Of a stretch of 64,000 nucleotides of DNA, positions 21,493 to 54,273 are shown piece after piece (position 1 is the first letter of the stretch; every line of letters starts with the position of its first letter). The DNA is from a virus: positions 32,628 to 96,627 of the IMG/VR virus record IMGVR_UViG_3300029309_000005; one strand, given 5' to 3'. Made by a program: the position numbers and the translations under genes. Under the pieces are notes generated by a model. That model was not told the DNA's origin. It was given only the letters and a program-made list of their open reading frames with translations, and did not search any database.

Positions 21493-22642
21493 AATGACAC
21501 AAGGATATATTCGCACAATTGAAGATATGGAACGCTTGTATTACGGTGCAGGTGCAGGAACAAACGCATGGGCATACAGTGGAACAGACTTATTGAAGGC
21601 TGACAATCCCCTAATGTCCTCTACTGCTGGAACATACCAAGCCATTTTTGGTCGTAAAGTATGGTCACAGTTAAATCAAGAATTCAACGCATTTAGCATT
21701 CTGCCAAAGAAGCCTTGGGAGAAATCTGGATGGCGTGTTGTAACTGGTAAGCCAACTGATGCAGTAGGATTGCCAGAAAACGGTGCGCTACCGGATTCCA
21801 CCAAGCCAACATTTGAAGAAGTTGCTACAAAGCCAAAGACAGTCGCAAGCAAATTCGACCTATCTGAAACTGCAATGTTCCTTGCTGACAAGGATGACGG
21901 TCTAGGTGACGCAAGAGCAGTTATCAAGATGGAAATGTCGAAATCTCACGCAGAATCAATTAACAAAATGTTGCTTCGTGATGTAGATACAGTCGCTGGA
22001 AACAACTTTGAATCCATTGATCGTGCTGTTTCATCATCCTTTACTGAGCCAGCATCTTTCGCTGATATTTCAGCACTATCAGACCACAACCAGTATTCTA
22101 TCACCCGTAACTCAACTGGTGCTAACTCTTGGTTCGATGCAAACGTAGATGCTGGAACTGGAGGAACAGAGCGACCATTGACACTGAATGTGCTTGATGG
22201 AATGTTTAGACAAGTTTGGGAACGTGGTGGTCAGCCAAAGGTTATTCTAACTGGCTATGACACTATTGAGAAGATTCAACAACTATTGCAGCCTCAACAA
22301 AGATTTACTGAGATGCAAAGAGTTACACCATCAGTCAACGGAGTGCAAGGTATTCCTGGTATGGAGGGCGGATTCGTAGTAGCAACCTACAACGGTGTGC
22401 CAATTATACCTGCTAAAGATGTTCATGCACCATCTGGTGGACTTTCAAGAATTTACATGCTAGACACAGATTACATGTATTTCTGCACAGCAAAACCAAC
22501 TCTTTACCATGAAAGCGGAATTGAGACTGGCGATCCATTCGGTATCAACAGATTGGGTCAGGTTGGTCTATTCCACACAATGGGTGAACTATGGCAACTG
22601 TTCTATGGCGCACATGGAAAGATTCGTGACCTAAGTGCATGA
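21485..22642 (+). CDS. Major capsid protein, HK97 fold (likely start 21494)
   Basis: Position after the protease; size; ENGALPDSTKPTFEEV E-loop-like region, YNGVPII, IYMLDTDY, GKIRDL; resembles halovirus/Magrovirus MCPs. Confidence 0.9.
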   Translation: MSEMTQGYIRTIEDMERLYYGAGAGTNAWAYSGTDLLKADNPLMSSTAGTYQAIFGRKVWSQLNQEFNAFSILPKKPWEKSGWRVVTGKPTDAVGLPENGALPDSTKPTFEEVATKPKTVASKFDLSETAMFLADKDDGLGDARAVIKMEMSKSHAESINKMLLRDVDTVAGNNFESIDRAVSSSFTEPASFADISALSDHNQYSITRNSTGANSWFDANVDAGTGGTERPLTLNVLDGMFRQVWERGGQPKVILTGYDTIEKIQQLLQPQQRFTEMQRVTPSVNGVQGIPGMEGGFVVATYNGVPIIPAKDVHAPSGGLSRIYMLDTDYMYFCTAKPTLYHESGIETGDPFGINRLGQVGLFHTMGELWQLFYGAHGKIRDLSA

Positions 22643-38500: not shown

Positions 38501-40494
38501 AACCATATCAAGCATTTGGGCATGGAGGATTATTGGCTACAAATAGCAGATCATATCAATTAAACTCATTCCCTGCACCATTACCACTTGGGGCTGATGG
38601 TGAAACATATGCACCCATTACCACATTTACTGGTGCTGTGCATGGGCCATTAACTCATGCAACAGATCAATCAAATACACAAAGAACCTACAATGGAATT
38701 GGGCAACGCATGAAAACACAAACGAAAATAGGTGCAGTTGCCCCTGTTTTCCCTCATACTTCTTATCTTTGGAATGCAGTTCAACAAAGATTTGATTACA
38801 TAATAGTCAAAGCAGATGGTGTTGATCAACTCATGCGTTCAACACATAAATCTGGAGGAATAATTCGAGTAAATGGTAGATTTGCGTCTTATGAAGATTT
38901 TAGGATTGAATATAGTGCAGATGCTTACAATATAGATGAGATGTATTTGATTAATGTCAAGCCTTACAAAGAAGCGGATAAGTTTTCAGAAGGATTCTTT
39001 CAAGCAGGAACGCCAGGCACTGGAGTTGCAGTAAATGATTTAGAAATTGAGTTTATTTATCCAATGATTGATACAGAGGGAATACTATTCTTTGGCGGAG
39101 GTCACACTGGAGTTGTGTTTGATATTAGCGATGGTAGTAAAAACGATTATTCTGATTTTTACAAACACCATTTAGCAAACGGCCCAACTGGTTTCGCAGG
39201 TTTTCAAAACTTAGGTAATTTTGGAACAGCATCTGCAATACTTGACTTTACAGATGTATTAAACGATGACACAGTAAATGATGATACTTTGAGAGGATTT
39301 CATCACCAAACGGTATTTAATGTTAATAATGAGCCAGAGGGTAAATGTGCTTTCTATGCTAGATTATCAAACGGTATCTACGGAAGTGATGAGGATCTTG
39401 CTAGTGGTGCTGCATTGTCTCAAGACAACACAAAATGGAGAGAGGATTTGTATAATCGAAAATTAAGAGTAACTTCAGCAAACGGATTTGGAACACTTGC
39501 TGGCTCTGCGACAAGCGGCACTGAAGTAACTCCAACTGGTTCAGCAATAACAACAAAAATGTGGCATTTCGGAGATGTAGTTGCTTTATTCAATAATAAC
39601 TCTGGCACAGTCGAAGCAGAACACGGAGAGGTCAAAAACTTCAATCCAAGGGGTCAGGCTTGGTGTGTGTCGGCAGTAATTCATGCTGCTGGAACTCCTA
39701 ATTATCCCACAGGGCCAATTTTTCATGGAATATACAATGACGGAGGAACCGCTAGACCATATGGAGTGCATTTAGGTGCATCTGCGCCTTCTGGTAGCCC
39801 TTTGAGATACCCATTATCTTTAGCAATTACAAATCCTAATGAGTTTCCAATAGGTAATCAAGTCCAAGTATCTGTTTTAGCACCAAGCACAGTTACAGGA
39901 GGAACAGTTGTCGCAAATGTTAGCGGCTTTTTGTTTATCATGGCTGGAATAGATGAAACGGGGCTACCTTTCTTGTATATGGGGCATACTAGCGGAATTA
40001 CCAATCCTAATACTGGCGCAGTAGAAGTGGGTATTTTCGACTATACTCCATATATGATTCGAGGTTTTGATGAGCATTATGATGCTGGTAGTGCCTCACC
40101 AAATAAAAAAGCCTTCTTTGATGTTGAAGCCACTGGTTATGCAGGTGGCGACCCCGATCATCCTAATGTTCCTACTGCTTTACAAACCATACGTGATTTA
40201 GACATGGCTACGATAGGGTGTGCTTTGATTGGTGCGCCATTTGTGGATTTCCCGCCTTCTGTTACTACACTATCAGGAATACCTTTAGGAACGCCCATAA
40301 CAGATTATTTTACAGCATTACAAACAGGAAGTCCAACATATGGAGTAACAGGCACTGGTGGTTCTTTTGGTGATGGTAAAAACTCCGCAGGGCCAATTCA
40401 CTTTGCAGGTTCATTATCCGAAGTTGCTTTATGGAAGCGTTTCTTGACATTTGCTGAAGCGCAGACATGGTTTGACGCTAGAAATGTGTGGTGA
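35530..40494 (+). CDS. Giant tail-tip/baseplate protein (1654 aa)
   Basis: Within the tail-tip cluster; LEIRGRS hub-like motif; LamG-like C-terminus FAGSLSEVALWKRFLT. Confidence 0.7.
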   Translation: MMATLKDSNNDGLAGMSGMTAYNRVDGEFYLHQMPLPDEQVVKQTIQGVVDEFLYNSDELSLQSIMKQNEPVKVTENAYVGETKSVYNKCKTSFSIDSSGNPFNRIIIQGGAGSHDTTLATNLSASVHDEIVAIGIEDVKPFLIKGLDFDFTADIKDGKPTNDGYIKHLTPSDRHMIASIEAPAILTSAGGPSKILVYYSAIDLTGEVVAGTGLTPSEVNARIRPYHVESNKPYLVVEKTVPSGSTLFNISGTFRSLSDILLKPYTSAPGTASDVQMEMVSPGGIIEIPTQDFKRPIKSHLLKSHGFDGSFPSPFVNIEDCVLTIKNGGRGYGIPKRINNTNTPDPTANPSHHILTISSNTGDNLKTFDEGKRTPSALRRSTLQVFNILDNQIDQNHHFILVAPANKNRYAGLEDFLSSSESTDPPNVSIEIALLNGRAEEFNTLMDSDGATLEIRGRSNLMDVTDSEVKRNLNLGETVPIKEIGDLGTPSVSMTLGGVGQGGVDAKSERTEHNSLSGWKDKVVSSGNVSVRNDRQTSTDYASTRALVEFPLFESMFYDTKGLYEEIDGVTNGVHAFGKEFEIEIDCTMTAMNRVQMQTYEARNSVDWGLNHGYAGIQVNNAAALGKTNRPYSFGLKVIHPKIQAVVESGSVLMTGASNAYIQVDSVEAFVNDTLQGTDGINRDTSTGVLGRNFYVIIGEGQATVTPTGPTGMDNSFQDYLMARVHKIDTVNNRLHIDQALFRTPRLDTAVNFSASSPAAVTHIVKGMSVVMGGVIVNDLSTHTGYGGSTIMNVDWGNSATFASQLRTALSLCLGMNTTLLYQGTEGEIRHNLGMGCLEWDIFNEWSQPNNRQLKEPIECKSILYGLKGISKDGTSLIDVKPQTINLRRIALKADGFESCVNEFIRKINMAGHPDAQEITVFDPFGTGGKERAPSDAYNSHLGYVRAFLGSPVVSRTGEQGLSVVIHSTVPGAAGRNFAVKFHNNSYYPYQPYQAFGHGGLLATNSRSYQLNSFPAPLPLGADGETYAPITTFTGAVHGPLTHATDQSNTQRTYNGIGQRMKTQTKIGAVAPVFPHTSYLWNAVQQRFDYIIVKADGVDQLMRSTHKSGGIIRVNGRFASYEDFRIEYSADAYNIDEMYLINVKPYKEADKFSEGFFQAGTPGTGVAVNDLEIEFIYPMIDTEGILFFGGGHTGVVFDISDGSKNDYSDFYKHHLANGPTGFAGFQNLGNFGTASAILDFTDVLNDDTVNDDTLRGFHHQTVFNVNNEPEGKCAFYARLSNGIYGSDEDLASGAALSQDNTKWREDLYNRKLRVTSANGFGTLAGSATSGTEVTPTGSAITTKMWHFGDVVALFNNNSGTVEAEHGEVKNFNPRGQAWCVSAVIHAAGTPNYPTGPIFHGIYNDGGTARPYGVHLGASAPSGSPLRYPLSLAITNPNEFPIGNQVQVSVLAPSTVTGGTVVANVSGFLFIMAGIDETGLPFLYMGHTSGITNPNTGAVEVGIFDYTPYMIRGFDEHYDAGSASPNKKAFFDVEATGYAGGDPDHPNVPTALQTIRDLDMATIGCALIGAPFVDFPPSVTTLSGIPLGTPITDYFTALQTGSPTYGVTGTGGSFGDGKNSAGPIHFAGSLSEVALWKRFLTFAEAQTWFDARNVW

Positions 40495-43400
40495 GTATTA
40501 TTCCTGAGTCATTTTCAAGGTATTTATCTCCTGCCAAAAACGAGTCTTGGGGCAGCACATCAACAGGCAAATATCCTTCTGGCGTTTTTGCCATGCACCT
40601 AACTTATCCAGATACTGCTTATGATGATGGAGTTACGGATTGGCAATCGGGTGTGAACTCCAATGACTGGAGGCAAGGTCTTACAGTCTTAATCAGAACA
40701 CCTTTAGCAGCATCAAGTTCAACTATCGCTGAAGCAAAGAATGTAATTGCTGTTGATTTGAAAGCGGCTGCAAATGCTAATCCTACAATGAATTTTGATT
40801 TGGGGTCTGAAAACGCAACTAGAATGATTGCAGCAAAAATCAATTCTAGGCGTATAAAAATGGTGGGGGAGAGAGATCAGGCTAGGTATGTAAGAGCGAT
40901 GTATGTTCGTCAATCTTTACCTAGAGCATACTCCATTATCGGTGCAACTATGGGTGCAGGTGCAGCAGGAAATGTTAATTTAGAAATAGCAACATGTAGC
41001 AAACATGGTTTTCCTTCTGAGTTCATTGATGGCGACTATATCTTACGGGTTGAAAATGCTTCTACTTCTAAGAATATAGATAACGGAGATTACACAGACC
41101 TTAGTTTAAGATGGCTGCGATCACCAGAGGGCGGTTCCTATAATGCTTTGATTCAAGCAACTTTCAATACAGCAAACATAAACGGTTCTCCAACAGGGGG
41201 CTTAGGCACAACTGGAGATACATTAAGCAACAGTTTTACTTTGATTGGTGAATCGCCTAAACATACAATCGTATTGTCTTGGGATTTAGTAGCCCCAAGT
41301 TCATCAGCACATGGATATTGGGGTGAACAAAGTGGTGGGCCAATAATACAAGGAATGGGTTCTATTGGAGTTCATCGTTTAGTAGCAAAGCCAATGGATG
41401 GAGGAAATAGAGGAATACCGGCTCTTAATTATGCAACTAGAAATGGTAAAACTTCGTCTGTTTATGCTGGTGGAGGCAGAGGTTTCAATAGATTTTCAAT
41501 TGAAGGACTTAACTCTTGTAATTTACCGGATATGCCGCCTCCTGATTTTCATTCAATTCATCCGACAATCAGAGGAATAACAACGGTGCATCCCAATGCT
41601 GAAACCGATGCTGTCTCAAACAATAGGTTACGAATACAACCATTAGAATATGCGACAGGATTTTCAATTAAAGGAACGGCTTCAGATCAAAAGATTGGTT
41701 TTAGCACAGGATATACAACTACTGACTTTACAGCAACCACTGAATCAGCATATGTGTCATCTGGTGCAAATGGTGTTCACATAAAGAATGTTGATGTTAC
41801 TGATGCTGCAACATATAGAACCGCAGTTGCCGATAATTCAAATGATACTTATGCACGTGAGTTTATGACAACAATGACTGAAAATGCAGAAAGAGTTGTC
41901 GGATTACAAATTAGTAACGAGGAAAAGGTGTTTGAATCCATAGTTACTACTGATGATTTAGGAAATGAATTGATATTGGAGGGAGGGTCGCCATTCGGAA
42001 CAGTCATTCGAGATTATAAAATTACCAATGAGCGTGAAAATACAGTAACTGGTGAAACTTTCATTGGCCCTTCTAATCCAGGCGGAGATGTAGCACCAAA
42101 TCTAAGAATACAACTACCAAAGCAAGAGGATATACCTGGTGGCATATTTGTTAGGGCAGGACATGATCGTGTGCAAGCGTGGTCTAATCAAACATGGGGC
42201 ATGGGCGGATTGACAGCACCAAACCCAAGATTGGCTGGAGTAGCAGAAGCCGCAAATGAAGCGTCACAATATGATACAAATGACCGTTCTTTGATTTTCC
42301 ATTGTCAACGCATCTTACATCCTAACGCTAAAGATATTCATGGTCTTGATACGCACACTGATGCTGGATTGTTTTCAGCAGGTCACACTAGACTGTTTGC
42401 TGCTCATAGAGCATCAGACCATACTGAAAGAGGCAGTTTATTGAAGCAAACAAACAATGGAGTAGAAACAGGCAATCTAATTCCACACCACAGAATCAGA
42501 TTTGGGAGACAGGGGCATACATTTGTAACCCCTCTTTGCCATAGAGGAACGCCAGCATCTCTAAGAAGGCAACTTCACCGTTCACATGGTTCAGCCTATT
42601 CTCTAATGTTTGAGGCAGAAACTGAGTATAAACATCATGGCTTTGGAAATGGTAATACAACAAACACTTCAAGTGTTTTCCAATTAGATACAATTGATGC
42701 AAAAAATACAAGTGTATTTTACGATACAGGGTCTTTCGTATCTGATGGTTTGCCATTTGACGAATTAGAAGGAAAAAGACACATAGATGCAGATGCAAAA
42801 TATACGTCAGCAACTCATCGAAGTATTCCTGATTACCTATTTGCACCAGGACAAACTCATACTAATGTTGAAGGAACTCCAGAATTTGTATCATTTGCGC
42901 TGGCAACTAGGGATGGATCAATATCAACGGGTTCTCCAACTAGATTGGAACTTCAAGGTAGCACATTCACAGTTAGAAATAGATTCAATACTGCAAGTGA
43001 AGTAATGATAAATGGGTTCTTCATTAACAATTATGGTGCAATTGGGGGTAGGCCAGAACCAATAAAATTAGTTGCTAAAGATTCGACAAATAACTGGTTT
43101 TTGCGTGGGTATCATGAAGGAGTAATTAGGCCAAGAGTCGCCACAGAATTAGCGACTGTTCCTCCACTATTAGTTCACGATCCAGAATATATGAACCTAA
43201 GTCGTGATGATGATCAAAGGGATTTTGGTCTAATCAAAGCAAGTGATACTAACAAGGGGGGAACACCAGATGCTTTCCTTTGTCACTGGTTGGCAGAGTT
43301 TAGTCACCCAATACTATTCGGCACAACTAGAGAACATTACCTAACATTCCGTTATCGTGAATCTGGAATGCCACGTGCCGTTAATTATCCATCTACAAAT

Positions 43401-46400
43401 GGTCTATTTTTACGAAACTTCTCAAATCCAACAACTGACGGCCAAGCAGAAAAAGCATTGCCATTTGAAAGATTATACATTGCTCAGTGGTTACAAAACT
43501 ACGGGTATAATGGATTGAATGCAGGTGGGCATGGAAATGTGGAGGGTCTGAAAGGTTTTAATTGTGTAATGATGGGGCATACTACACTTAGAGAGGCACG
43601 TGGAACAATCCAATTGTATAATCAGACTGGAATAAATAGATACTCACGTGGAGAAGCAATAGGAGATTCATTGAATCCCACTAGCAGATTAAGACTTGTT
43701 AAAGGAATAGACTTAGATAGTGACGGTCAGGACTTAAATAAACAATTTTATGTCGCTGAACCATATATTGGTATTGATGTTAGCAGAAGATTACCAGTCC
43801 GTTCTTGGGGAATTAGAAGTGCCTCAACTCTAAGCGATATATTGGCCGGAGATCCAACTGAAAATCAAAATGGAAACGCCATACTCAATTCTGGAAGATT
43901 CGATGGAGGGGCGCATGATTCTGCTGCTGAGATACCATTTGCTACTAACACAGAGATAGTTAGTGATTCTACTTGGCCTGGAATTGATATGCACCCAGTC
44001 GAAAGAACCGCACCTGTTGGTTTTGTAGCCAGCGACTTTACAACTGAAGCCCATCCGTTTGAAAGAAACATCAGACAAAGCAATGACCCAATAAAGGCAC
44101 AGGATAAACAAATAGGAATAGGTGCGAATCTTGGTATTACTCAAAATGGGATGTTGGATCCTAGTGCTATGGCTGCTGGCGCATGGGATTATGAATTGAA
44201 TGATAACAGGCCAACAACGCTACCAGTTAGTGGCCCTGTATTATGGTTAAAAGCCGATTCATTAGATTTAGCCGATGGTGCGTCTATTAATTCATGGGTC
44301 GATTCATCATCAAATGGATTTGAGTTCACACAAGGCACAGCATCTGCTCAACCATCACTTGTAAGAGGTGATGCAGATTACAATGGGGAGTCTCATGTTC
44401 ATTTTGATGGTAACGACAGTCTTTCTGTGCCTTTCAGTGCAAAACTAAATCCAAATAATATGACTATTTTTGTTGTTGCCACTGTTGATTCAGACAACAA
44501 TGTTTTTAATGGAATTATTGATAATTTTACTTCAAACACTGGATGGTTGTTATACGCAAAAATGGTGGGTTCTGATAATTTTTGGCAATGGCGAACAGGA
44601 ACTGGTTCTGCTCAAACGACAATATCAGCATCAGCCAATACCGTTGTTCCAAATACCCCATCAATTGTTACAATGAAAATGGCTGGTAGTGATGGTTCAG
44701 GGGGGGGTTCAACAACTCAAACATTGTATGTAAATGGTAAGTCTGAAGCAACATCGAGTGCTAAATTTACCAAAAAAACAAACACTTCAAACACACCAGT
44801 TCTTGGAAATGTAGGGTCATTTGCTCTAACAGGTCAAATGGCAGAGGTGATTATTTTTGATAGAGATTTAACTGATGCTGAAAAACATGAAGTTGAAGCA
44901 TATTTATCTCGAAAATACGGTGTGACTATTTCCACTTCAGCACCGACTTCTCATACTGGGAGGTTACATGATGTTGATAATATCCCAGTAAATAAGGGCA
45001 GCGATCCATTCATTGATTTGGTTCAAAGAAGTGGTAGTCCAACTTATGCTCAACAGGATTCAGCAGGGGCAATGATAACTACTAGCAGTTCAAGATTTGG
45101 GCATGGTAGCGACTTCTATCATCTGAGAGGCAATGCTCTCCATGCTAATTTCCATGCAATAAATGAAACTAGAGGTAGATTCTCATATCCGCCAAATAGT
45201 ATAATGGAGGCTGAGATGACATCAAATGTAGTCTCAAGAGTAACGCCAGATTTGATGTCTGAAATATCTGATGTGAGACAAATTCAATCCCGAACTGAAC
45301 CAAGATTAGGATTGATTATGGAGGTTGAAAGTGAAAGAAACTCAAACCTTGATGTGAACTATGCAGTTGCTGGAACTAGAGCAGTTTCTCTCCATACTGA
45401 TAAAATGCTAGGCTATCAATTCCCTGTTTTGCCATCACACGTGGTAAAGACTTTCATGACAAATAGCGGCTTTACAGTCAATGGGACTGGCTCTGCTGCA
45501 ACAAGGCCAGACTACTCCAAAAAACCAACATGGAGTCCAGATTCAAATAGTTCTAAACCTGCATTGCTGTCTGGTTTTACTAATGATACTGTAAGAAGCG
45601 ACTTTAAGACCCATGCCTTAGATGCTTGGGCGGTTCGTGGCGTTGCTGATTTACCAGCATGGGGTGGAGTCTATATCTTGCGTAAAACATATTTGAATAG
45701 AGAGGAAGATAGTTCGATTCTTAGAACAGAGGTTGATGGCAGCACTGGTAAAGCAACTCCATCCAACCCAGTTAGAAAATATGTTGATTACATCATAAGA
45801 CCAGTAAGGCCATTGAAGTTATTTGCTTTTGCTTCCGATTTATTACAGGATGGTTGGACTTTGGGGCCAAGATGTGCAATTTCACTACCAGGGTGGGATC
45901 ACCAGCCATTTCATCGTGACAAACGGTATGGCATTTTTGAATTGAATGAGTCAAAAGGTGTAAATGAAGTTGAACCAATAACTTCCGCTACATCTGCACT
46001 GACAATAGAGTTTCCTAATGCGAATGATTATGATGTCATATATCATTTGATACCAACTGCAAACATGTTACAGCATTTCAAATCTGATGCACACAGAATT
46101 GATAACGAGGGAAATTTCAATCCTAAGATAGAAGCGAGATATTCTCAAGCATCACACCCAGGGGGCGGTGAACCAGTCTATCAAACTGAAACAAATTTCA
46201 CTGTTGATAATGGGGTTTCTGGCGACCATGCAAGACGTGTCAAGACTGGAACTTTGGTTCAACCAAGCCAAGCGATGAGACTTTATCCTAATGTAAAATT
46301 CACTGTAAATTTAGGTTCGAGTAAATTTCTAGTCGATGAACCTTATTTGTTACCTGCATCTGGAAAACTGATTGCACTAGATTTCAAAGGTCGTTTAGAA

Positions 46401-48029
46401 TATACAAGGTCGGGTGATGAAATTACATTAACTGCTCAAGAACTATATGATCAGAATGATGTAGCAATATCAGATTACATTGGTATGACTTTTTACTTTT
46501 CAGATGTTACAGATGTAGGCGCAGTATCAACTTGGAGTATTAGAACAATTAACGATGCTAGAAGCCCAGTAGCAATACAAGCAGTATCTCCATCATTTGT
46601 TGATAATTCAGTTGTTAGTATGAAAATACAGTCACAATCTTGGTATCATTATGATGGAGTAAAAGATATTGTTAGCAAAACTGCACTTTCGTATAGAGGA
46701 TTGATGCACTACGAACCAAGTGACTTTGTAATGGTATCACAGCAGACATTCAAGATATTTGATGGTAGCGATAGAGGTGTAATTGAACACTTGAATGGAA
46801 AACCGGATATTTTTGTTGATAGTAAAAAACTGTCATCTGATTATTTCCCTCCCTATCTGATAGATTCACGAAATGTAAGATGGAGAATCGCTGATATTAC
46901 ACAAGACCAAAAGAATACATTAATGGTGTTCAAACAAATGTCAGGTAAGAGTCTAAGTGATTCAGGGCTGGCAATAGGAGAGGCAATAGCCGGTCAATTC
47001 GGTTACATAGGAATAAGAACTACTGATGCTGCCATGCACTTACTAAATGATGCTGGAGGGAACAAAGCAGGTGTTACTATAACTCCGTCTAACGAGTTCC
47101 ACAATAATTCTAGGGATATTGAAAGTTACTTAGGCGCACATCCAATGCTAAGGCAAATCAATGATCACAGCAACAAATACATTGCACGTGATACTAGAGG
47201 TCTAAACACTATGGAGGTTTTGAGAAACATAGCACAGTTAGATGGCCGTCAAATGATGAGTGAAAATAATGGGTCAATTCTTCTAACTAGCGATATTTTC
47301 AAAGAAAGAGGATTAAGAATAGGTAGTCAAAACGGGGCAGATTTGATAGAAGTTAGTCGCTTGTTTGATTCACCAAATGAAATTGTAATTGTAGGTGATG
47401 TAATTGCTGGAAATGAAATTGTATTCATTAGAGTTCAAGACAGTGAGAAGATTCGTGAGGCTGCAACCAGTGGAGAGGAAACTGTTGTCAAAACACTGAG
47501 ACAACAAATACCTGGAATAAAGAGTGTTTCTGCTGCAAGAAAATTGGCTAAAACACTGTTATCAAGGTCTGAAAATGGTGCGCCAATGATTACAATGAAA
47601 GGATTAATGAATGCTACTTCTATAATGGCTGGAGATATAATTGATGTCAATTTACCAAATCATGGAGTGGTTGGGAAATTTGCAGTATTTGAGGCCAAAC
47701 ACAAGTATCAAAGCCTACGAACCGATTTGATTATTGGGCAATATGAAAAGGGTATTGAAGGACTATTATCTGACATAAAAACTAGCACAATAGACATTAG
47801 CGGATTAAGTGAAAGCGCAGGTGATAAGGACATTAAGGAAAACATCACCATGTCCTCAAAAGTCAATATCATATCGGTTCACAGAGTCCGTGTTAGGAAT
47901 GTAAATGAAACCGGATTCATTATCGGTGCAAAATACAAAAACGGACTTGGAAAGATAGGTGTTAGGGATGGAAATAAAAGAGCGTTCCCTATCGGCAACA
48001 GTAAGAGCCGAAATTACGTGGTGAAATAA
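40488..48029 (+). CDS. Giant tail-tip protein (2513 aa) with LamG domain and hub-like C-terminus
   Basis: PVLWLKAD...AEVIIFDRDLTDAE LamG-like unit; NEIVIVGD...ARKLAKTLL...IMAGDIIDV hub-type C-terminus. Confidence 0.75.
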   Translation: MVSIIPESFSRYLSPAKNESWGSTSTGKYPSGVFAMHLTYPDTAYDDGVTDWQSGVNSNDWRQGLTVLIRTPLAASSSTIAEAKNVIAVDLKAAANANPTMNFDLGSENATRMIAAKINSRRIKMVGERDQARYVRAMYVRQSLPRAYSIIGATMGAGAAGNVNLEIATCSKHGFPSEFIDGDYILRVENASTSKNIDNGDYTDLSLRWLRSPEGGSYNALIQATFNTANINGSPTGGLGTTGDTLSNSFTLIGESPKHTIVLSWDLVAPSSSAHGYWGEQSGGPIIQGMGSIGVHRLVAKPMDGGNRGIPALNYATRNGKTSSVYAGGGRGFNRFSIEGLNSCNLPDMPPPDFHSIHPTIRGITTVHPNAETDAVSNNRLRIQPLEYATGFSIKGTASDQKIGFSTGYTTTDFTATTESAYVSSGANGVHIKNVDVTDAATYRTAVADNSNDTYAREFMTTMTENAERVVGLQISNEEKVFESIVTTDDLGNELILEGGSPFGTVIRDYKITNERENTVTGETFIGPSNPGGDVAPNLRIQLPKQEDIPGGIFVRAGHDRVQAWSNQTWGMGGLTAPNPRLAGVAEAANEASQYDTNDRSLIFHCQRILHPNAKDIHGLDTHTDAGLFSAGHTRLFAAHRASDHTERGSLLKQTNNGVETGNLIPHHRIRFGRQGHTFVTPLCHRGTPASLRRQLHRSHGSAYSLMFEAETEYKHHGFGNGNTTNTSSVFQLDTIDAKNTSVFYDTGSFVSDGLPFDELEGKRHIDADAKYTSATHRSIPDYLFAPGQTHTNVEGTPEFVSFALATRDGSISTGSPTRLELQGSTFTVRNRFNTASEVMINGFFINNYGAIGGRPEPIKLVAKDSTNNWFLRGYHEGVIRPRVATELATVPPLLVHDPEYMNLSRDDDQRDFGLIKASDTNKGGTPDAFLCHWLAEFSHPILFGTTREHYLTFRYRESGMPRAVNYPSTNGLFLRNFSNPTTDGQAEKALPFERLYIAQWLQNYGYNGLNAGGHGNVEGLKGFNCVMMGHTTLREARGTIQLYNQTGINRYSRGEAIGDSLNPTSRLRLVKGIDLDSDGQDLNKQFYVAEPYIGIDVSRRLPVRSWGIRSASTLSDILAGDPTENQNGNAILNSGRFDGGAHDSAAEIPFATNTEIVSDSTWPGIDMHPVERTAPVGFVASDFTTEAHPFERNIRQSNDPIKAQDKQIGIGANLGITQNGMLDPSAMAAGAWDYELNDNRPTTLPVSGPVLWLKADSLDLADGASINSWVDSSSNGFEFTQGTASAQPSLVRGDADYNGESHVHFDGNDSLSVPFSAKLNPNNMTIFVVATVDSDNNVFNGIIDNFTSNTGWLLYAKMVGSDNFWQWRTGTGSAQTTISASANTVVPNTPSIVTMKMAGSDGSGGGSTTQTLYVNGKSEATSSAKFTKKTNTSNTPVLGNVGSFALTGQMAEVIIFDRDLTDAEKHEVEAYLSRKYGVTISTSAPTSHTGRLHDVDNIPVNKGSDPFIDLVQRSGSPTYAQQDSAGAMITTSSSRFGHGSDFYHLRGNALHANFHAINETRGRFSYPPNSIMEAEMTSNVVSRVTPDLMSEISDVRQIQSRTEPRLGLIMEVESERNSNLDVNYAVAGTRAVSLHTDKMLGYQFPVLPSHVVKTFMTNSGFTVNGTGSAATRPDYSKKPTWSPDSNSSKPALLSGFTNDTVRSDFKTHALDAWAVRGVADLPAWGGVYILRKTYLNREEDSSILRTEVDGSTGKATPSNPVRKYVDYIIRPVRPLKLFAFASDLLQDGWTLGPRCAISLPGWDHQPFHRDKRYGIFELNESKGVNEVEPITSATSALTIEFPNANDYDVIYHLIPTANMLQHFKSDAHRIDNEGNFNPKIEARYSQASHPGGGEPVYQTETNFTVDNGVSGDHARRVKTGTLVQPSQAMRLYPNVKFTVNLGSSKFLVDEPYLLPASGKLIALDFKGRLEYTRSGDEITLTAQELYDQNDVAISDYIGMTFYFSDVTDVGAVSTWSIRTINDARSPVAIQAVSPSFVDNSVVSMKIQSQSWYHYDGVKDIVSKTALSYRGLMHYEPSDFVMVSQQTFKIFDGSDRGVIEHLNGKPDIFVDSKKLSSDYFPPYLIDSRNVRWRIADITQDQKNTLMVFKQMSGKSLSDSGLAIGEAIAGQFGYIGIRTTDAAMHLLNDAGGNKAGVTITPSNEFHNNSRDIESYLGAHPMLRQINDHSNKYIARDTRGLNTMEVLRNIAQLDGRQMMSENNGSILLTSDIFKERGLRIGSQNGADLIEVSRLFDSPNEIVIVGDVIAGNEIVFIRVQDSEKIREAATSGEETVVKTLRQQIPGIKSVSAARKLAKTLLSRSENGAPMITMKGLMNATSIMAGDIIDVNLPNHGVVGKFAVFEAKHKYQSLRTDLIIGQYEKGIEGLLSDIKTSTIDISGLSESAGDKDIKENITMSSKVNIISVHRVRVRNVNETGFIIGAKYKNGLGKIGVRDGNKRAFPIGNSKSRNYVVK

Positions 48030-48030
48030 G

Positions 48031-48228
48031 ATGGTTAGTTTATTTGAAAAAGCATGGCACTTATTGAAGGATGACATCGAAATAGCACCAAGAAATCGAC
48101 CTAGCGATTATGTGAAGCCACGAAACCCACTTCAATACATGCTTCGCAACCCTCCTAGACCATCCAGAAGGGATTATCAAAGACATTATCAAAAATTAAG
48201 GGAAAAAAAAGAAAAAAAGGATGAATGA
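48031..48228 (+). CDS. Small basic protein with FxxAWxLLK leader
   Basis: MVSLFEKAWHLLKDD; GGTGA SD. Confidence 0.7.
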   Translation: MVSLFEKAWHLLKDDIEIAPRNRPSDYVKPRNPLQYMLRNPPRPSRRDYQRHYQKLREKKEKKDE

Positions 48229-48572
48229 TTATGCCAGTTCTCGACCCCCTCAAAGCCGCATTGACAGATCACTTGCAGACTTTAATTAAACAATGTTCTC
48301 TAGGTTCTGGTAGCACAGATGCCTCTAGTCGTGATGGCGGGGCAGGTAACACAAAGATGAGCCGTTCTGCGACTGTTCAGAAAATTGATAATCGCACAAT
48401 ATCAGTCAGTGCTTTGTTTGATACACAAGTTACCAGTGAGCAATCAATTACAGAGGTTGTTTTACATGGCACAAATCCACTTGATACTCCATCTTTTAGG
48501 GCTACATTTATGCCAATTCAAAAAAATAGCACAAATGAAGTCCGTGTGGATATTTTAATGGAGGTTAGATAA
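48225..48572 (+). CDS. Small baseplate/tail structural protein
   Basis: LGSG...ITEVVL...RATFMPIQK...VRVDI pattern of small tail-tip proteins. Confidence 0.6.
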   Translation: MIMPVLDPLKAALTDHLQTLIKQCSLGSGSTDASSRDGGAGNTKMSRSATVQKIDNRTISVSALFDTQVTSEQSITEVVLHGTNPLDTPSFRATFMPIQKNSTNEVRVDILMEVR

Positions 48573-48790
48573 TGACAGAAACATTTGAGATTGCATGGGA
48601 ATTGATGAAAAGCGATGAGAAGGGCGACAACGCCCCAACCAACCCTAGTCTTTGGTCGCAAGCCAAATCGAAGGCTCGATCCAAGTTCAAGGTCTATCCC
48701 TCAGCCTATGCCAACGGTTGGGCTGCTAAGTGGTATAAGTCCAAAGGTGGCGGTTGGAAAAAGAAAGGCAAGAAGGGGAAGAAGAAATGA
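48572..48790 (+). CDS. Leader-bearing small basic protein (PSAYANGW domain, DUF5872-like from recollection)
   Basis: MTETFEIAWELMKS followed by PTNPSLW...KFKVYPSAYANGWAAKWYKSKGGGW. Confidence 0.7.
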   Translation: MTETFEIAWELMKSDEKGDNAPTNPSLWSQAKSKARSKFKVYPSAYANGWAAKWYKSKGGGWKKKGKKGKKK

Positions 48791-49239
48791 CCGCTTTTGA
48801 TACTGCTTGGGATTTGCTCAAAAAAGAGCATTGGAGAGAGACACCAATAGGTCGTTTAATCAGCCAATCTCCAATGGCATACGACATGTTAGACACCACC
48901 GTTAGCGCAAAGGAGATGGCAATGTTGGCTGCGATGGAGGAAGAAGAAAGGCAAAAAATGGCTGAATATGATGCAAAAATGGCCTATTATCAAGCATTTT
49001 TGGATGACTATATGGGAGGGGAAATGCCAGACCAAAAAGATGCCTTTAGGCTGTTTAATGAAGCCAAACCAATGAGAATACAGATGGGTTCAGTGCCACT
49101 TAGAATGGGTATGGGTGAAGTTGGTGATTTATTGACAGATCGTAGAATGCACCCAAAGCGTGGCGTAGTTTTCCGCCCACCTTCAATTGAGGATTTCATG
49201 CGAGATAAAGGCGTAGATCCGATGGGGTATAAATCATGA
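48787..49239 (+). CDS. Leader-bearing Met-rich hypothetical protein
   Basis: MTAFDTAWDLLKK at ATG 48787 (ATGA overlap). Confidence 0.7.
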   Translation: MTAFDTAWDLLKKEHWRETPIGRLISQSPMAYDMLDTTVSAKEMAMLAAMEEEERQKMAEYDAKMAYYQAFLDDYMGGEMPDQKDAFRLFNEAKPMRIQMGSVPLRMGMGEVGDLLTDRRMHPKRGVVFRPPSIEDFMRDKGVDPMGYKS

Positions 49240-49619
49240 CCGCTTTTGACATGGCTTGGGATTTTGTAAAGCATGAGTGCGGAACAAAAGATGCGAAAAA
49301 AACCAAAGGCAAGTTCCAAAAAATGAAGGGTGTGGATTTCACTTTACCAAGAGGTGAAATGAAGGTTTTACAAGCCGAAGATAAAGATTACAAAAGAGGC
49401 GTTCTTGTTGAATTACTTAAAGATGGGGGATATGAAGTAGCATACTGGTATGATAAATTTGAAGTATATCCAGTAGAAGTTATAGTTGATGGCAAATCAA
49501 TAAAAAAAGACGCTAGAAAAGTTATACTCAAATTCCATCCAACCTTAGAACAAGCAAGGGGTAAATCGAAGAAGTTAGTTAGAGAAGCGAAGCGTAAATA
49601 CAAGGAGTCGAAAAAATAA
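49236..49619 (+). CDS. Leader-bearing hypothetical protein
   Basis: MTAFDMAWDFVKH; ATGA overlap. Confidence 0.7.
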   Translation: MTAFDMAWDFVKHECGTKDAKKTKGKFQKMKGVDFTLPRGEMKVLQAEDKDYKRGVLVELLKDGGYEVAYWYDKFEVYPVEVIVDGKSIKKDARKVILKFHPTLEQARGKSKKLVREAKRKYKESKK

Positions 49620-51058
49620 TGATTCTGAACCCAGTTTCTGATTTAATCTCAAAAGATTTGAGAAGATGGTTTAAGGAAAAGTGGGTTGATGTTTCACGCA
49701 AGGATAAAGATGGCAAGCACCCTCCATGTGGGCGTGATGAAGCCAAGACTGATAGTAAGGGCTACCCTAAGTGCCGACCATCAAAGAAGGTCAGCGACAA
49801 AACGCCAAAGACATCCCGTTCAATGAGTCAAAAAGACAAGAAGGCTGCTACTAGGAGAAAGCGGTCAAAACCACAGGGCGTTGGAGGTAAGCCAACAGTG
49901 GTTAAGAGTATTTTGAAAGATTTTTATTTTGGCAATAGAGGTTTAAGCGCAGGTGAATTTACTGGGCCAATAGCAACAGCCACTACTAGAGTGCCAGATC
50001 ATATTAAAAGACCAACAAAAGGCTTGGGTAAATTATTTGCTGGAAAAAAAGTGTGGGATTCTTATTCAGGGGCAGATACGACTTACAAAGGAAAACCAGT
50101 GACGTATGATGCTAACCCATCTAGTGAAAATACAGAGGTCACAGGTGACGGTTTTACAGATGAACTCTTAGGCGTTGGTTATCGAACCGATAAAACCCCT
50201 TATACTCAAGAAGAACTTCAAAATCGTGGGCTAAATGCCACCCCTAATAATGCCGAATTTAGAAGGGGCGGTTCTTTGCCCCAAACTAAGACAGTTAGAA
50301 CGGACACCCCTGGGAAGTCAATAATTACCTATGTTGATAAAGATGGTAATGAAATAAGGGGTTATGATAAAACTGGGAAAAAATATCTGAAAAATAACAT
50401 TAATCTGCCGAGAACGTATGAAGGGCAAGAGAGAGATTATACAACTCATTTAGGGGTTAATTTGGCATCTTACGGCCCTAAGAATGTTTATGCTGGCAAG
50501 TATAATGAAGATGATGCAATAGAGAGTATAATCAGCACACTTACTCACGAATACGGCCATGAAGCCATTGATGACGAATTGAAGCAAGCGGTGAAAAGAG
50601 GTGAATTACCTGGTGAAAACATTAATCTTGCACATGAAATTGGGGCGCACACACTTCAAGAATTTGGAGATGAAAAAGAAGTAAATCGAGCGTTAAAGAA
50701 TCATCCAAATACTTCTGCATTTAGAGGTAGATCTACTCCAGAAGCATTTAGAGGGAAAGGAAATCAAGTTACGATGCCAAAACCAATAGACGCATCTCCT
50801 GTAAAAAAGTCATTTGAGGCTGCTTGGGATTCTATTACAAAGAATGAGGATAAAGGCAAATTCAGAGGGTATTCTCGATCCAATATCAGCGACAGACCAT
50901 ATAGACAAGCAGAACACCGTGTATGGGATGTTTCGAGAAAAGTCAAGCGTGAAAGAACGAAGCGCAGATACAAGCGTAACAAGAGTAGAGGAACTGTTCG
51001 CCCTGCCATGCGTAGGCAATTAGGCGCAGGTGGCAAAAGAGCCTCAACAAAAAGGTGA
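49619..51058 (+). CDS. Polyprotein: basic LRRWFKEKW domain, HExxH zincin-like domain, internal leader and Arg-rich tail
   Basis: LRRWFKEKWVD...CGR...YPKCRP; THEYGHE...HE; SFEAAWDSITK. Confidence 0.7.
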   Translation: MILNPVSDLISKDLRRWFKEKWVDVSRKDKDGKHPPCGRDEAKTDSKGYPKCRPSKKVSDKTPKTSRSMSQKDKKAATRRKRSKPQGVGGKPTVVKSILKDFYFGNRGLSAGEFTGPIATATTRVPDHIKRPTKGLGKLFAGKKVWDSYSGADTTYKGKPVTYDANPSSENTEVTGDGFTDELLGVGYRTDKTPYTQEELQNRGLNATPNNAEFRRGGSLPQTKTVRTDTPGKSIITYVDKDGNEIRGYDKTGKKYLKNNINLPRTYEGQERDYTTHLGVNLASYGPKNVYAGKYNEDDAIESIISTLTHEYGHEAIDDELKQAVKRGELPGENINLAHEIGAHTLQEFGDEKEVNRALKNHPNTSAFRGRSTPEAFRGKGNQVTMPKPIDASPVKKSFEAAWDSITKNEDKGKFRGYSRSNISDRPYRQAEHRVWDVSRKVKRERTKRRYKRNKSRGTVRPAMRRQLGAGGKRASTKR

Positions 51059-51089
51059 GGCTTGATATGGAATTTGATACTGCATGTAG

Positions 51090-52250
51090 TTGATGAAAGT
51101 AAATACCTTAAATGTTTTAGAAACTTATGCAGGTGCTGGTGGCAACCCTGAGATACATGCAGGTTGGGCGCAAGCAGCCAGAGATAGAGGCCATAATGTA
51201 ATTCGTAACGAAATAATGTATGCTGGCAATCCAGATGAAAGTTGGGCAGATTATGATTTAGGATATATGCCTGAAATGCCAGGAAATATTTTGAATTATT
51301 CAGCCCAAGATGTAATCAAAATCTTAAACGGGAAAACACCAGATGTATTCTATGCTTCACCCCCATGTGAAGGTAACTCAGTGGGGGCAAGAATGCAAGG
51401 ATGGGAAGATTGGGCTGGTGACGACAAAAAGAAACAGGCTTTCAACAGAGCGAGGAATAAAGGCAATGCTGAATTCTTTACTAGAGAAGGAGTTGGCCCT
51501 ACTCCAACGAATGATGCGGCTAAGTTAGGTCGCCAACTGATGATTCATACTTTAGAATTCATTGATGACTTGCAGGATTATAGAGTTCACAATGAAGGCC
51601 GTGATACTGACGACCCCATGTATTGGTGGCTAGAAAATCCAACTGGTATGATGAGATACCAACCAGAAATGGGTATGCGGCCACTAGGACAGCCATTAGG
51701 CGTAAAAACAACTGGTAGCAAAGTTCCACCGCCAACAATTACTCACGCATCATATTCAGGGCCAATGGCTGATTTGCTAGGAGTTCCAAGACATGACATC
51801 CCAGGACATCCTGCTATCCCATCTCGAAAACAAACCGATTTATGGACTAACGCTGGAGGCATTTGGCTACCAAGGCCACATACAAAACCAGGACTTCACC
51901 CTAATGCACCAGTATTCGATATGAGTCTTGATGAATTACAAGCATTGTATGGTAAAAAGGCAGTAAAGAATATCCCGCAGAGAACCGGCAAAGAATCTGG
52001 AGATGCGGGTGTGTTACACGCATGGGGGCCAAGAGGTGCAAAAACAGGAGTTCAAGGTATCAAATCTATGGTGCTACCAAGTGGTGTTAGAATACCACAA
52101 TATCATATGAAATCTCTAATCCCATACGCTTTGGGTGAAGATACAATCATAGCGGTTGAAAAAGCCTTAGCAGGTGAAAAAACTCCATATCCACTTCTCA
52201 AAAGAAGCGATAAAATTAGTCATACACTATTTGACTTTAATCAAACATGA
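51090..52250 (+). CDS. DNA cytosine-C5 methyltransferase-like protein
   Basis: Motif I LETYAGAGG, motif IV DVFYASPPCEG, motif VI LENP, and KQTDLWTN. Confidence 0.75.
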   Translation: MMKVNTLNVLETYAGAGGNPEIHAGWAQAARDRGHNVIRNEIMYAGNPDESWADYDLGYMPEMPGNILNYSAQDVIKILNGKTPDVFYASPPCEGNSVGARMQGWEDWAGDDKKKQAFNRARNKGNAEFFTREGVGPTPTNDAAKLGRQLMIHTLEFIDDLQDYRVHNEGRDTDDPMYWWLENPTGMMRYQPEMGMRPLGQPLGVKTTGSKVPPPTITHASYSGPMADLLGVPRHDIPGHPAIPSRKQTDLWTNAGGIWLPRPHTKPGLHPNAPVFDMSLDELQALYGKKAVKNIPQRTGKESGDAGVLHAWGPRGAKTGVQGIKSMVLPSGVRIPQYHMKSLIPYALGEDTIIAVEKALAGEKTPYPLLKRSDKISHTLFDFNQT

Positions 52251-53401
52251 CCTGCATGAACGTAGGTAATTACAACAGTTGTTGCTGTTCCTAACGGTGG
52301 GGGCAAAGAGGCTGGATCATTGAGCGACAACTCAGTGGGAGTTACAGTGTAATGCAATCCTTCAATCATAGTGCCAACATGAAGATGTGAAGCGTCATAT
52401 GCTTCAACAGTTATGAGGCTTGTAACTCCATCTTCTTCACTCACTAATGGCTTAAAAAGAAGTCCAGCAGGTGCAGCGTTTCCAAATGGAAGCACTGTTG
52501 GTGAACCAGTAGGGTATGGTAATGCGTCTGTTTTTGCAGTTCTATGAATAGGGGTTATTTGATAAGTTCCTCCGCCCCCTGGTGCTAACCCTAAACCAAT
52601 ATCAGATTGGAAAAATAGATGAGTTTGACCTATCCCTTGTGGTATTCCAGTATGTATTCCAGATGGATTTCTAGCAAACAAAACTCCTAAATCTGTAATT
52701 GGTAAATTGGCTGCATTTAGACCTGCTATGAAGTCGTTTCTCATGCTGCTTTCAGTGCCATCACTGTGTTCTATTGCAGACAAGGCTACTGGGCCAGGTC
52801 TATTGAAAACTCTCTTATCTTCTATTGCTAAGATAACTGGGTTCGATGCACCTTTACCTACTCGAACTGCGGCCAATACTGTGTTTTGTTTCACTAAATG
52901 GCCGGATGGGGATTGAGGATATACGCCAGTAGAAGTTTCAACATATGACCCATAAGTGAAACCTACATTGTTAGGCAATCTAGGATCTACATAAACTAAC
53001 AGTATGGCTTCATCGGTAGGGTTTGTGCCATTTGGAATGGCAGAACCATGAACACTAGAATGGTAATTTGCTGATCCACCTATGTCTAAAACAGAGGCAG
53101 AACCAACATTGTAAAACATCCCATCTAACTGAACTACTCCTACATCAACATACAACTCTTTAGTGCTACCTAATGTTCCATTTGGCCTAACACAGCAATT
53201 GCCACTTACTGGGTTATTCCTGTTTGCTTCGTCATATCGGTTTAGTGTGATTGGTATAACTCCGTTCCCAAGACCACGTTCAACATTGTTAGTCAGAGAA
53301 GGGCTAGTTAGAACATCTGTATCTCTAAGCCCATCGTTTTGATAGGTTGATGCCCCTGTTGCTGTCTTTTCGTGACCCTCTGCTAAATTAGTGTTAGACA
53401 T
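52241..53401 (-). CDS. Probable virion structural (tail-associated) protein
   Basis: G/T/P/N-rich beta composition; VDVGVVQLDG..Y and VLAAVRV...IEDKRVF pattern of tail proteins. Confidence 0.55.
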   Translation of the reverse strand: MSNTNLAEGHEKTATGASTYQNDGLRDTDVLTSPSLTNNVERGLGNGVIPITLNRYDEANRNNPVSGNCCVRPNGTLGSTKELYVDVGVVQLDGMFYNVGSASVLDIGGSANYHSSVHGSAIPNGTNPTDEAILLVYVDPRLPNNVGFTYGSYVETSTGVYPQSPSGHLVKQNTVLAAVRVGKGASNPVILAIEDKRVFNRPGPVALSAIEHSDGTESSMRNDFIAGLNAANLPITDLGVLFARNPSGIHTGIPQGIGQTHLFFQSDIGLGLAPGGGGTYQITPIHRTAKTDALPYPTGSPTVLPFGNAAPAGLLFKPLVSEEDGVTSLITVEAYDASHLHVGTMIEGLHYTVTPTELSLNDPASLPPPLGTATTVVITYVHAGHV

Positions 53402-53405
53402 GGTT

Positions 53406-53618
53406 TCAACTCATTGAATTAACATATGCTTGAAACAACATTCTACCCATTTTTCTCTGATCCCTTTCGCCAGGATAGTTTGCTTCTGCAACCATTCTTG
53501 CAGCGATTATTGGATGAGCGTTTTGATTTTCCACAAGCATTCGTATCTCATCAACTAATGAAGCAATATCAGACATATCTGATTTCAACGTATTCCAACT
53601 GTTCTCAAAAGCATTCAT
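53406..53618 (-). CDS. Leader-bearing small protein
   Basis: MNAFENSWNTLKSD at ATG 53618 (TGATG overlap). Confidence 0.7.
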   Translation of the reverse strand: MNAFENSWNTLKSDMSDIASLVDEIRMLVENQNAHPIIAARMVAEANYPGERDQRKMGRMLFQAYVNSMS

Positions 53619-53989
53619 CAGCAATTCCACCTTTTCAACGCTGCACCCTTTGGTGTTAATTTACCGCCTTTACTGGTTGGCCCTTTGACTCCAGACATTC
53701 TGGCGCAAAAAGACTTTCGCCTCTTAGCCTTCTTTGATCCTGGTTTGAGTTTGCTAGGTTTGGTTGTGACAGGGGGCTTTAGATTCGCACCTTCTTTTCT
53801 TTTGAAGTGCGCTCTGCCTTTAGCACTCAATCCGCCCTTGCGACTGTGCTTCTTGGGATTGTAACCGTGAAACGGTTTGGACTTTTTCTTTGCCTTATTT
53901 AGTATAACTGTGGCAAGAATCTTATCTTGATTTGGCCTTATCATTACAGCCTTTGCTAAGACTTGACAAGTGCTACAATCGCAAATCAT
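53618..53989 (-). CDS. Highly basic protein (GGL..KGR...RRKSFCARM...WNC domain, DUF6321-like from recollection)
   Basis: Motif recognised from small basic proteins of marine phages; preceded by LAKA and LNKA sites. Confidence 0.7.
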   Translation of the reverse strand: MICDCSTCQVLAKAVMIRPNQDKILATVILNKAKKKSKPFHGYNPKKHSRKGGLSAKGRAHFKRKEGANLKPPVTTKPSKLKPGSKKAKRRKSFCARMSGVKGPTSKGGKLTPKGAALKRWNC

Positions 53990-54273
53990 CCCAGTTTCGC
54001 CCTCACTTCTGCAATTGCCATTCTGCGACCTTCTTCCACATACTTTTCAAGATTTCCAACGTAGCCTTCTTTTGCTAATTCACTCATTACATAATCCTCT
54101 TGACCTGTTTCTAAGTGTGCTATTATTGTGTCTAAGAATAATTCTTTTGCCATTTTAGATATGTTGCCCAAACTCAGACTTTCCAACATTTCTCTGCGCT
54201 CTCTATCTTCAGGATTTTCGCTTGGTATATATCCTATTTTTAACAAATCCCAAGCCTTTTGAAATACAGTCAT
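53986..54273 (-). CDS. Leader-bearing small protein
   Basis: MTVFQKAWDLLKIG. Confidence 0.7.
   Translation of the reverse strand: MTVFQKAWDLLKIGYIPSENPEDRERREMLESLSLGNISKMAKELFLDTIIAHLETGQEDYVMSELAKEGYVGNLEKYVEEGRRMAIAEVRAKLG

Follow-up and report, generated by a model that had tools for sequence, protein, structure and literature searches.

Among described systems, those closest to the one reported here are the capsid-loading signals of phages T4 and P1. The T4 capsid targeting sequence (CTS) is an N-terminal propeptide of 10-19 amino acids (aa) removed by gp21 (PMC9026906), and P1 DarB needs no more than its first 30 residues to be targeted to the capsid (PMC9024508). The ejection proteins of the giant phages SPN3US and phiKZ, which include many head-internal proteins, are processed by the prohead protease and delivered to the host (PMC10052503, PMC7411985). 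In this study, we analysed a 64,000-nucleotide stretch of viral DNA (positions 32,628 to 96,627 of IMG/VR record IMGVR_UViG_3300029309_000005, referred to as the window), in which unrelated proteins begin with variants of one 12-residue peptide, M-T-A-F-D-T-A-W-x-L-L-K, hereafter the tag. We see about an even chance that this peptide is a portable capsid-loading tag like the signals of T4 internal proteins and P1 DarB, where docking, cutting, packaging and ejection are steps that we infer.

The window (G000:C1:32628-96627) is part of one 96.6-kb viral contig with overlapping ends, whose sequence identifies the virus as a tailed virus, a magrovirus of ocean archaea. Its HK97-type major capsid protein (MCP) is 32-33% identical to those of haloviruses HVTV-1, HCTV-1 and HCTV-5, with nothing closer among GenBank phages, and a halovirus-like capsid protein, the likeness seen here, is the magrovirus signature (PMC5434244). 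Six open reading frames (ORFs) of the window begin with M-x-x-F-x-x-[AS]-W-x-x-h-K (h, hydrophobic), F being residue 4 or 5. In a six-frame translation, the strict pattern F..[AS]W..[LMIVFT]K matched six times in the window, compared with a mean of 0.135 and a maximum of two in 200 mononucleotide shuffles. An earlier note on this DNA, made by reading the letters, had placed N-terminal copies at 48031 (FEKAWHLLK), 48572 (FEIAWELMK), 48787 (FDTAWDLLK) and 49236 (FDMAWDFVK) on the plus strand and at 53618 (FENSWNTLK) and 54273 (FQKAWDLLK) on the minus strand, and all six were recovered there; the ORF at 48787 truly begins with the ATG there, rather than with the TTG at 48754. Also present are the internal copies that it reported as having an additional residue, FTYAWDSVLK at 5008-5037 and FEAAWDSITK at 50813-50842, and the relic at 51067 is real, consisting of M-E-F-D-T-A, a one-base gap at the Trp codon, and then L-M-K-V-N-T-L...YAGAGG of a C5 methyltransferase. 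Its variant FQTSFQLMK at 24740 does exist as a sequence, but we do not count it as a copy, because Phe replaces Trp, the tag profile misses it at E<=1, and its short ORF overlaps the 24820-26526 gene. The whole genome contains 19 N-terminal copies, which is about one gene in six, plus internal copies; the 13 N-terminal copies outside the window form an array at 20.1-28.4 kb of the genome, just upstream of it.

The note had also claimed that similarity stops abruptly after the Lys, and this is borne out by the DNA, which is ~70-73% identical between copies over the tag and 29% identical over the next 36 nt. Codons are mixed at the invariant residues (F, TTT 95 and TTC 58; Ala-7, GCT 80, GCA 40 and GCG 17; K, AAA 96 and AAG 57). 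Because synonymous codons vary and similarity ends at the Lys, these comparisons indicate that selection acts on the tag as a peptide.

The tag is widespread in related viruses. One DNA pattern for MTAFDTAW, run on IMG/VR, matched 24 other contigs of 7-108 kb, most of them with arrays of 8-15 consecutive tagged genes, and five of them with a capsid protein that shares 85% identity or more with the window MCP. The 182 unique tagged proteins from these contigs gave the consensus stated above, followed by A or M and then, in 39%, by Pro. Beyond residue 16 their cargo is highly diverse (90 clusters, 58 singletons). A profile built from 140 tags and searched against 1.84 billion protein representatives returned 162 at E<=1e-3, all of which, except four repeat proteins, match from residue 1. 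At least ~155 protein clusters in this set carry the tag, a count that is a lower bound because a 12-residue signal is barely significant at the 1.84-billion scale. The false positives of the profile are repeat proteins with HHETSWNIMK repeats, a beta-propeller-like repeat or a Gram-positive surface repeat. The N-terminus of a conserved Glaciecola membrane permease, M-x-A-F-[DE]-L-A-W-R-L-F-K (L112, L113, L115), in which a transmembrane segment comes next, was set aside as a chance resemblance to the tag in an unrelated bacterial protein. In the literature that we searched, FDTAW, AFDTAW and AWDLLK occur in no paper, and the magrovirus papers among it mention no N-terminal motif, in keeping with the note's statement that such a system had not been described for archaeal viruses.

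In cellular genomes, the exact DNA pattern had no match among 185,579 species genomes, and with a relaxed pattern the only arrays were those of a 106-kb viral contig in the Poseidoniales single-cell genome AG-422-I20. All 19 profile matches in this 1.2-Mb genome fall on that one contig, and 200 other Poseidoniales genomes gave only two single matches (E ~0.004-0.005), as expected by chance, one of them internal to a CTP-synthase-like protein. An equal frequency of the motif in host proteins, which the note had named as grounds for refutation, is thus not seen, the strong matches in the 201 Poseidoniales genomes being confined to the viral contig. From these searches, the tag is virus-specific and not a copied host sorting or processing signal, and since it is absent from host proteins, its receptor would be viral, or else a host protein that the host does not use in this way. 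The contig itself (AG-422-I20_NODE_2; G001:C2; L114, L116, L119) is 106,262 bp long and has its 19 tag matches in two arrays, in a single-cell amplified genome labelled Poseidoniales. It looks like a magrovirus genome caught in one host cell, which would directly support the host assignment.

Models of the tag point to the anatomy of a docking helix, short and amphipathic, with a face of F, W and L. AlphaFold2 predicts a helix at residues 3-11 in one cargo family and 3-12 in another, with a confidence below that of the cargo domains, which would fit, but does not show, a helix that stands free of them. F, W and the second aliphatic residue are placed at i, i+4 and i+7 in both FDTAWxLLK and the longer FxxAWDS[IV]xK, where the extra residue displaces the Lys only. 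The helix seems to be framed by an N-cap box with Thr at -2 and Asp at +1 (T/D-x-x-D/E), for which internal copies have Asp/Glu instead (S-E-D-x-F), and by the Pro after K-[A/M], which is predicted to terminate it. Its hydrophobic moment, 0.53, is similar to that of the p53 activation helix, and the p53 activation domain, a classic docking helix, has the same F-x-x-x-W-x-x-L spacing. The portable, helical and amphipathic character proposed in the note therefore agrees with the 90 cargo clusters, the predicted helix and the hydrophobic moment. We also considered the PIP box, which binds PCNA and is usually C-terminal (Q-x-x-[LIM]-x-x-[FY]-[FY]), but the tag does not fit this pattern.

The end of the tag, [LIV]-[LVMI]-K and then A, M or S, resembles Lys sites in the head proteins, at which A, M or S follows as well. 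In a comparison of 26 protease-scaffold sequences (59-87% identical), five hydrophobic-x-Lys sites have a Lys that is invariant in 26/26 (K22, K178, K327, K347, K421). With a slash after the Lys, DF[LI][LM]K22/S and Y[TS][IL]LK178/M[ED] lie at the two ends of the Pfam S78 match (residues 25-183), two N-x-x-V-I-K islands are invariant within the otherwise poorly conserved and probably disordered scaffold part, and LQK421/S is a further invariant scaffold site. The N-arm of the MCP reads ..NAW..DLLK38/ADN, aligned with MSK/ADN of HVTV-1. HK97 is the type member of S78, and its capsid protein gp5 is cut after Lys103. The match that the note saw between the end of the tag and motifs punctuating MCP and scaffold therefore holds, and extends to the sites flanking the S78 domain; as sequence motifs, the conserved Lys sites fit a removal of the tag by the prohead protease. 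The MCP N-terminus was tried as a marker of a propeptide boundary, but it is uniformly conserved over 80 relatives and therefore marks none. Co-folding of MCP and protease-scaffold with a 30-residue tag alignment gave an ipSAE of 0.00 in two runs without controls, which speaks neither for nor against binding. In the window, the tagged array is translationally coupled to a fibre-like late gene by 1-nt gaps or ATGA overlaps. Because the 48031 ORF begins 1 nt past the stop of this gene, which encodes 2513 aa, and ATGA overlaps follow, the array should be produced together with the late structural proteins.

The cargo includes ADP-ribosyltransferase folds, HExxH proteins, zinc ribbons, methyltransferases and small basic proteins, with a median size of 181 aa and 90% of the tagged proteins at or below 300 aa. 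A family starting K[MA]P[YF]HGT accounts for 25 of the 182 tagged proteins. Its model (pLDDT 78.5) matches Tpt1/KptA, S1 of pertussis and typhoid toxin, Arr and RES toxins, which assigns it, at the level of the model, an ADP-ribosyltransferase (ART) fold. For a K-A-P-I-D-V-Y family (pLDDT 66) all Foldseek matches had E>1, mostly to Tpt1/KptA. HExxH occurs in 22 of the 182 and two or more CxxC motifs in 22. Pfam recognised only GP88, DUF6321, DUF5872, zinc ribbons and HTH_38 among the 90 cargo representatives, with one member each, and two window cargos that scored 0.75-0.78 in the ESM Atlas gave no lead there. An intact tag precedes C5 methyltransferases on related contigs, between a Cys-rich module and the enzyme, and DUF6321 cargo, untagged in the window, bears the tag on another contig. 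In the 49619 and 4300 proteins of the window, a strongly basic tail follows directly after the internal tag. In fused cassettes each domain keeps a tag in front, so that some proteins have two or three. Such fusions (L013:2541-3731; P0022, P0147, P0122, P0007), in which some internal tags are still M-T-A-F, either arose by recent fusion of genes or reflect read-through or frameshift calls. Another form is found in double-tag proteins of 143-248 aa (L023:552-1295, L030:13100-13822, L021:2480-2908), with one tag at the N-terminus and another 2-4 residues away from the C-terminus; a Cys-rich, zinc-binding-like core is present in the first two of these.

In the T4 CTS of IPI-III and Alt (PMC9026906), as in the tag, a short peptide begins several proteins of one tailed virus that are otherwise unrelated and change fast. 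Both have aromatic residues near positions 4 and 7-8 and an end that resembles the head-protease site, which is putative in magroviruses, and both are found on proteins of the ADP-ribosyltransferase type (Alt in T4, a predicted fold in magroviruses) and on small basic proteins. However, the two share no sequence similarity. The T4 protease gp21 cuts at L/I-x-Glu, whereas the magrovirus enzyme is of the S78 (HK97) type with a putative h-x-Lys site. The cargo of T4 is a handful of proteins, compared with 19 genes per magrovirus genome and at least ~155 clusters overall. In addition, magrovirus cargo is mostly acidic, copies are internal and C-terminal as well, the host is an archaeon, and packaging and cleavage are putative. 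Since the protease is Pfam Peptidase_S78 and the tag is unlike the T4 CTS, the tag would by analogy be functionally CTS-like at best, and not a member of the T4 CTS family. In the similar P1 Dar system, a DNA-modifying enzyme enters the head by means of its N-terminal signal, the head is matured by an HK97-like protease that also trims DarA, and the cargo counters host defence (PMC9024508, PMC12810830). The P1 signal is on one protein, and its loading needs the ordered helpers DarA and Hdf, whereas the magrovirus consensus is on scores of families. The tagged C5 methyltransferases of magroviruses parallel DarB, and together with the predicted ART fold and the small basic proteins they give a cargo parallel to T4 Alt, T4 internal proteins and P1 DarB.

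Other systems share single features with the tag. The propeptides of SPN3US and phiKZ ejection proteins also end in a protease motif, but this motif is Glu-based, and they are long and lack a single shared short consensus. Peptides of encapsulins and microcompartments are short, helical in the case of microcompartments, and send arbitrary enzymes inside a protein shell, which in encapsulins has the HK97 fold; encapsulin peptides are usually C-terminal and extended, none of these peptides is removed, and the shells are cell organelles, not virions. The magrovirus tag shares with them the predicted helix and amphipathicity, and its shell binding is putative. Polymorphic toxin and effector cassettes, including MuF-toxin fusions in phage heads, join a constant N-terminal trafficking part to variable enzymatic C-termini. 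Magrovirus tagged genes likewise stand in arrays with signs of cassette exchange, but their constant part is only ~12 residues, not a domain. Nor do they belong to the toxin-immunity class, which has a cognate immunity gene: no immunity-gene pairs were found between the cassettes of the tagged arrays, where tagged genes are back to back with overlapping stops and starts and untagged ORFs are rare.

In the scenario of capsid loading that we favour, a groove on the scaffold or protease, or on the inward side of the capsid protein, would receive the tag helix during assembly of the procapsid, and thereby any protein fused to the helix would be enclosed. The S78 prohead protease would then cut after the tag Lys, at the same type of hydrophobic-x-Lys site as around its own domain, in the scaffold and in the MCP N-arm. 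The released cargo would remain in the head and enter the next host cell with the DNA, so that ADP-ribosyltransferase-fold enzymes, HExxH proteins, methyltransferases, zinc-ribbon proteins and small basic proteins would be delivered. The strongest form of this scenario is a plug-and-play delivery, in which any gene that gains the 12-residue helix has its product enclosed, freed by a Lys-specific S78 cut and injected with the DNA; we rate its chance as somewhat short of even.

Several observations weigh against capsid loading. Hydrophobic-x-Lys is a low-information motif, and a helix stop would account for K-[A/M]-P even if nothing were cut. The scaffold tail, of which the tag might have been a copy, reads ...DLEGWRAAEMLAQRALRGE here and is unlike it, and the related halovirus HVTV-1 is without the tag, which was not found in its whole record. 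The cargo is mostly acidic (median pI 4.9, compared with 5.7 for untagged genes), unlike T4 internal proteins, and this is awkward beside packed DNA; the window array is an exception to the bias, its ORFs at 48031, 48572 and 49236 being small and basic. Nineteen cargo species per genome is uncomfortably many for one head. Finally, an N-terminal propeptide model is incomplete, because tags are also internal and C-terminal. The note's proposal of a docking-plus-cleavage tag is thus favoured by portability, predicted helix, restriction to viruses, the Lys-site match and the T4- and P1-like types of cargo, but a simple copy of the T4 system is disfavoured by the acidic cargo and by the internal and C-terminal copies.

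In the main rival of capsid loading, the tag helix would dock to a hub other than the capsid. Concretely, the viral chaperonin would recruit fast-evolving, horizontally acquired domains for folding, or another conserved viral or host machine would take this place, and no cleavage would be needed. We consider this unlikely, albeit worth serious attention. A Cpn60/TCP-1 chaperonin is encoded in the genome (L001:6313-7938, minus strand, E=1e-131) and in four of five other near-complete tag-rich contigs (G206, G207, G208 and G210, not the 88%-complete G209). The N-terminal tag and the tag before each fused domain would suit co-translational capture, K-[A/M]-P agrees with a plain helix stop, and the spacing of F, W and L is that of classic docking helices, as in p53. 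On the other hand, a chaperonin gene is present in only 12 of 26 magroviruses (PMC5434244), and very small, Pro/Arg-rich and probably disordered tagged proteins, such as that of 48031, hardly need folding. No host protein with the tag was found in the Poseidoniales genomes searched, and the match to conserved Lys sites of head proteins is left unexplained. Alternatively, tags may bind each other or a small adaptor, giving one multi-enzyme body with or without later packaging. The heptad-like hydrophobic spacing, the high copy number per genome and the proteins with two or three tags fit such self-assembly, but helices of 11 residues are short for forming a stable bundle and no adaptor gene was found beside the tagged arrays, which makes it improbable in our view.

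We hold it to be quite improbable that the tag is an export or membrane/vesicle-sorting label. In its favour, host proteins lack the tag, so that a viral receptor would be needed; against it, the peptide is too weakly hydrophobic for Sec, Tat or pilin-type signals, and the cargo consists of nucleic-acid- and protein-modifying enzymes, which are expected to work inside cells. As for the DNA or RNA itself, the element could mainly serve recombination, as a handle for exchanging cassettes, or set the context for translation initiation, with the peptide as a by-product. Identical 24-mers are common to several copies in the genome, and tag copies on the same contig are slightly closer to each other in DNA sequence than copies on different contigs (0.733 vs 0.698; third positions, 0.58 vs 0.50), so that some gene conversion or recent duplication contributes. 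However, the invariant residues use mixed synonymous codons, and the tag is in frame at internal and C-terminal sites, where no initiation happens. Recombination can add to a function of the peptide but cannot replace it, and we give this last explanation hardly any chance.

The features of the window are listed in the table below. The contig ends repeat each other, bases ~21-80 recurring as the last ~60 bases (G000:C1:1-80, 96548-96627), which makes the assembly either a closed circle or a terminally redundant molecule, though linear according to IMG/VR. The minus-strand end and the first 18 kb encode nucleases, a UvrD-like helicase and the Cpn60/TCP-1 chaperonin. A PDB sequence search with the MCP gave no match, PHROGs gave nothing for ten unknown head-module genes, and Pfam gave no family for the window ORF at 320-1051 or for the gene at 51067-52250. 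Pfam DUF5872 is divided over two proteins of the tagged array, with positions 1-49 in the 48572-48790 ORF and 54-110 at the start of the 49619-51058 protein. Within the upstream tagged array lies an untagged HMGL-like gene of the HMG-CoA lyase / isopropylmalate synthase family (L002:3202-4071; genome 21202-22071; Pfam E=1.4e-25); no auxiliary metabolic genes have been seen in magroviruses (PMC5434244). Also upstream of the window are C5 and D12-class N6 DNA methyltransferases (L002:10573-11886, L002:12234-13520) with no recognisable nuclease partner. The C5 enzyme has a degenerate tag, FNEAFSLMLAK, at its start and a PIP-box-like tail, QKTLFDQF, at its end, and the second methyltransferase ends in the PIP-like NQQRLF.

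Table. Tagged genes, head genes and neighbouring genes of the window (positions are those of the window).
Feature	Position	Strand	Remarks
516-aa protein in the packaging module	4300-5850	+	Zn-ribbon N-terminal part; internal tag (5008-5037) after S-E-D-S, then a strongly basic region
Large terminase	9962-11398		
Portal	12616-14427		
Prohead protease (Pfam S78, residues 25-183) fused to scaffold	20095-21492	+	Candidate tag-removing enzyme
HK97-type MCP	21485-22642	+	
Tail-fibre or baseplate-like protein, 2513 aa, LamG/ConA-like domain	40488-48029	+	Tagged array directly behind
Tagged ORF, 65 aa	48031-48228	+	Tag at residues 5-13; cargo is a Pro/Arg-rich basic tail, pI 10.1
Untagged ORF, 115 aa, within the array	48225-48572	+	No family match
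Tagged ORF, 72 aa	48572-48790	+	N-terminal half of DUF5872 (profile positions 1-49) and Lys-rich tail, pI 10.4
Tagged ORF, 150 aa, MTAFDTAWDLLK	48787-49239	+	Cargo without known family; ATGA overlap with the preceding gene
Tagged ORF, 127 aa	49236-49619	+	Basic cargo, pI 9.7; 95%-identical ortholog in L026
479-aa protein	49619-51058	+	C-terminal half of DUF5872 (residues 12-82), HExxH region, longer-type internal tag (50813-50842), Arg/Lys-rich tail
Frameshifted tag relic MEFDTA (one base short) and gene read as C5 cytosine methyltransferase	51067-52250	+	Read from the YAGAGG motif alone
Tagged ORF, 70 aa, MNAFENSWNTLK	53406-53618	-	Ortholog in L026
Untagged, very basic DUF6321 protein between two tagged genes	53618-53989	-	Assigned by Pfam
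Tagged ORF, 95 aa, MTVFQKAWDLLK	53986-54273	-	

Magroviruses, whose genes mostly lack an assigned function, rank among the most abundant viruses of marine archaea. One peptide unites about one-sixth of the genes of this genome and at least ~155 public protein clusters in a single functional class, and what it predicts is testable without host culture. If the tag docks to the chaperonin or to another hub, it would be a new kind of viral client label. If instead it loads the head, it would reveal how magroviruses take over Poseidoniales cells, would show that capsid-targeting signals, described in two model coliphages, also serve archaeal viruses whose protease is of the HK97 type, and would provide a minimal tag for enclosing proteins in HK97-fold shells. 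Should the plug-and-play delivery be true, magroviruses would possess well over a hundred host-takeover enzymes in a rapidly exchanging arsenal, by far the largest known cargo repertoire of any capsid-targeting signal, and the first effector-injection system described for an archaeal virus.

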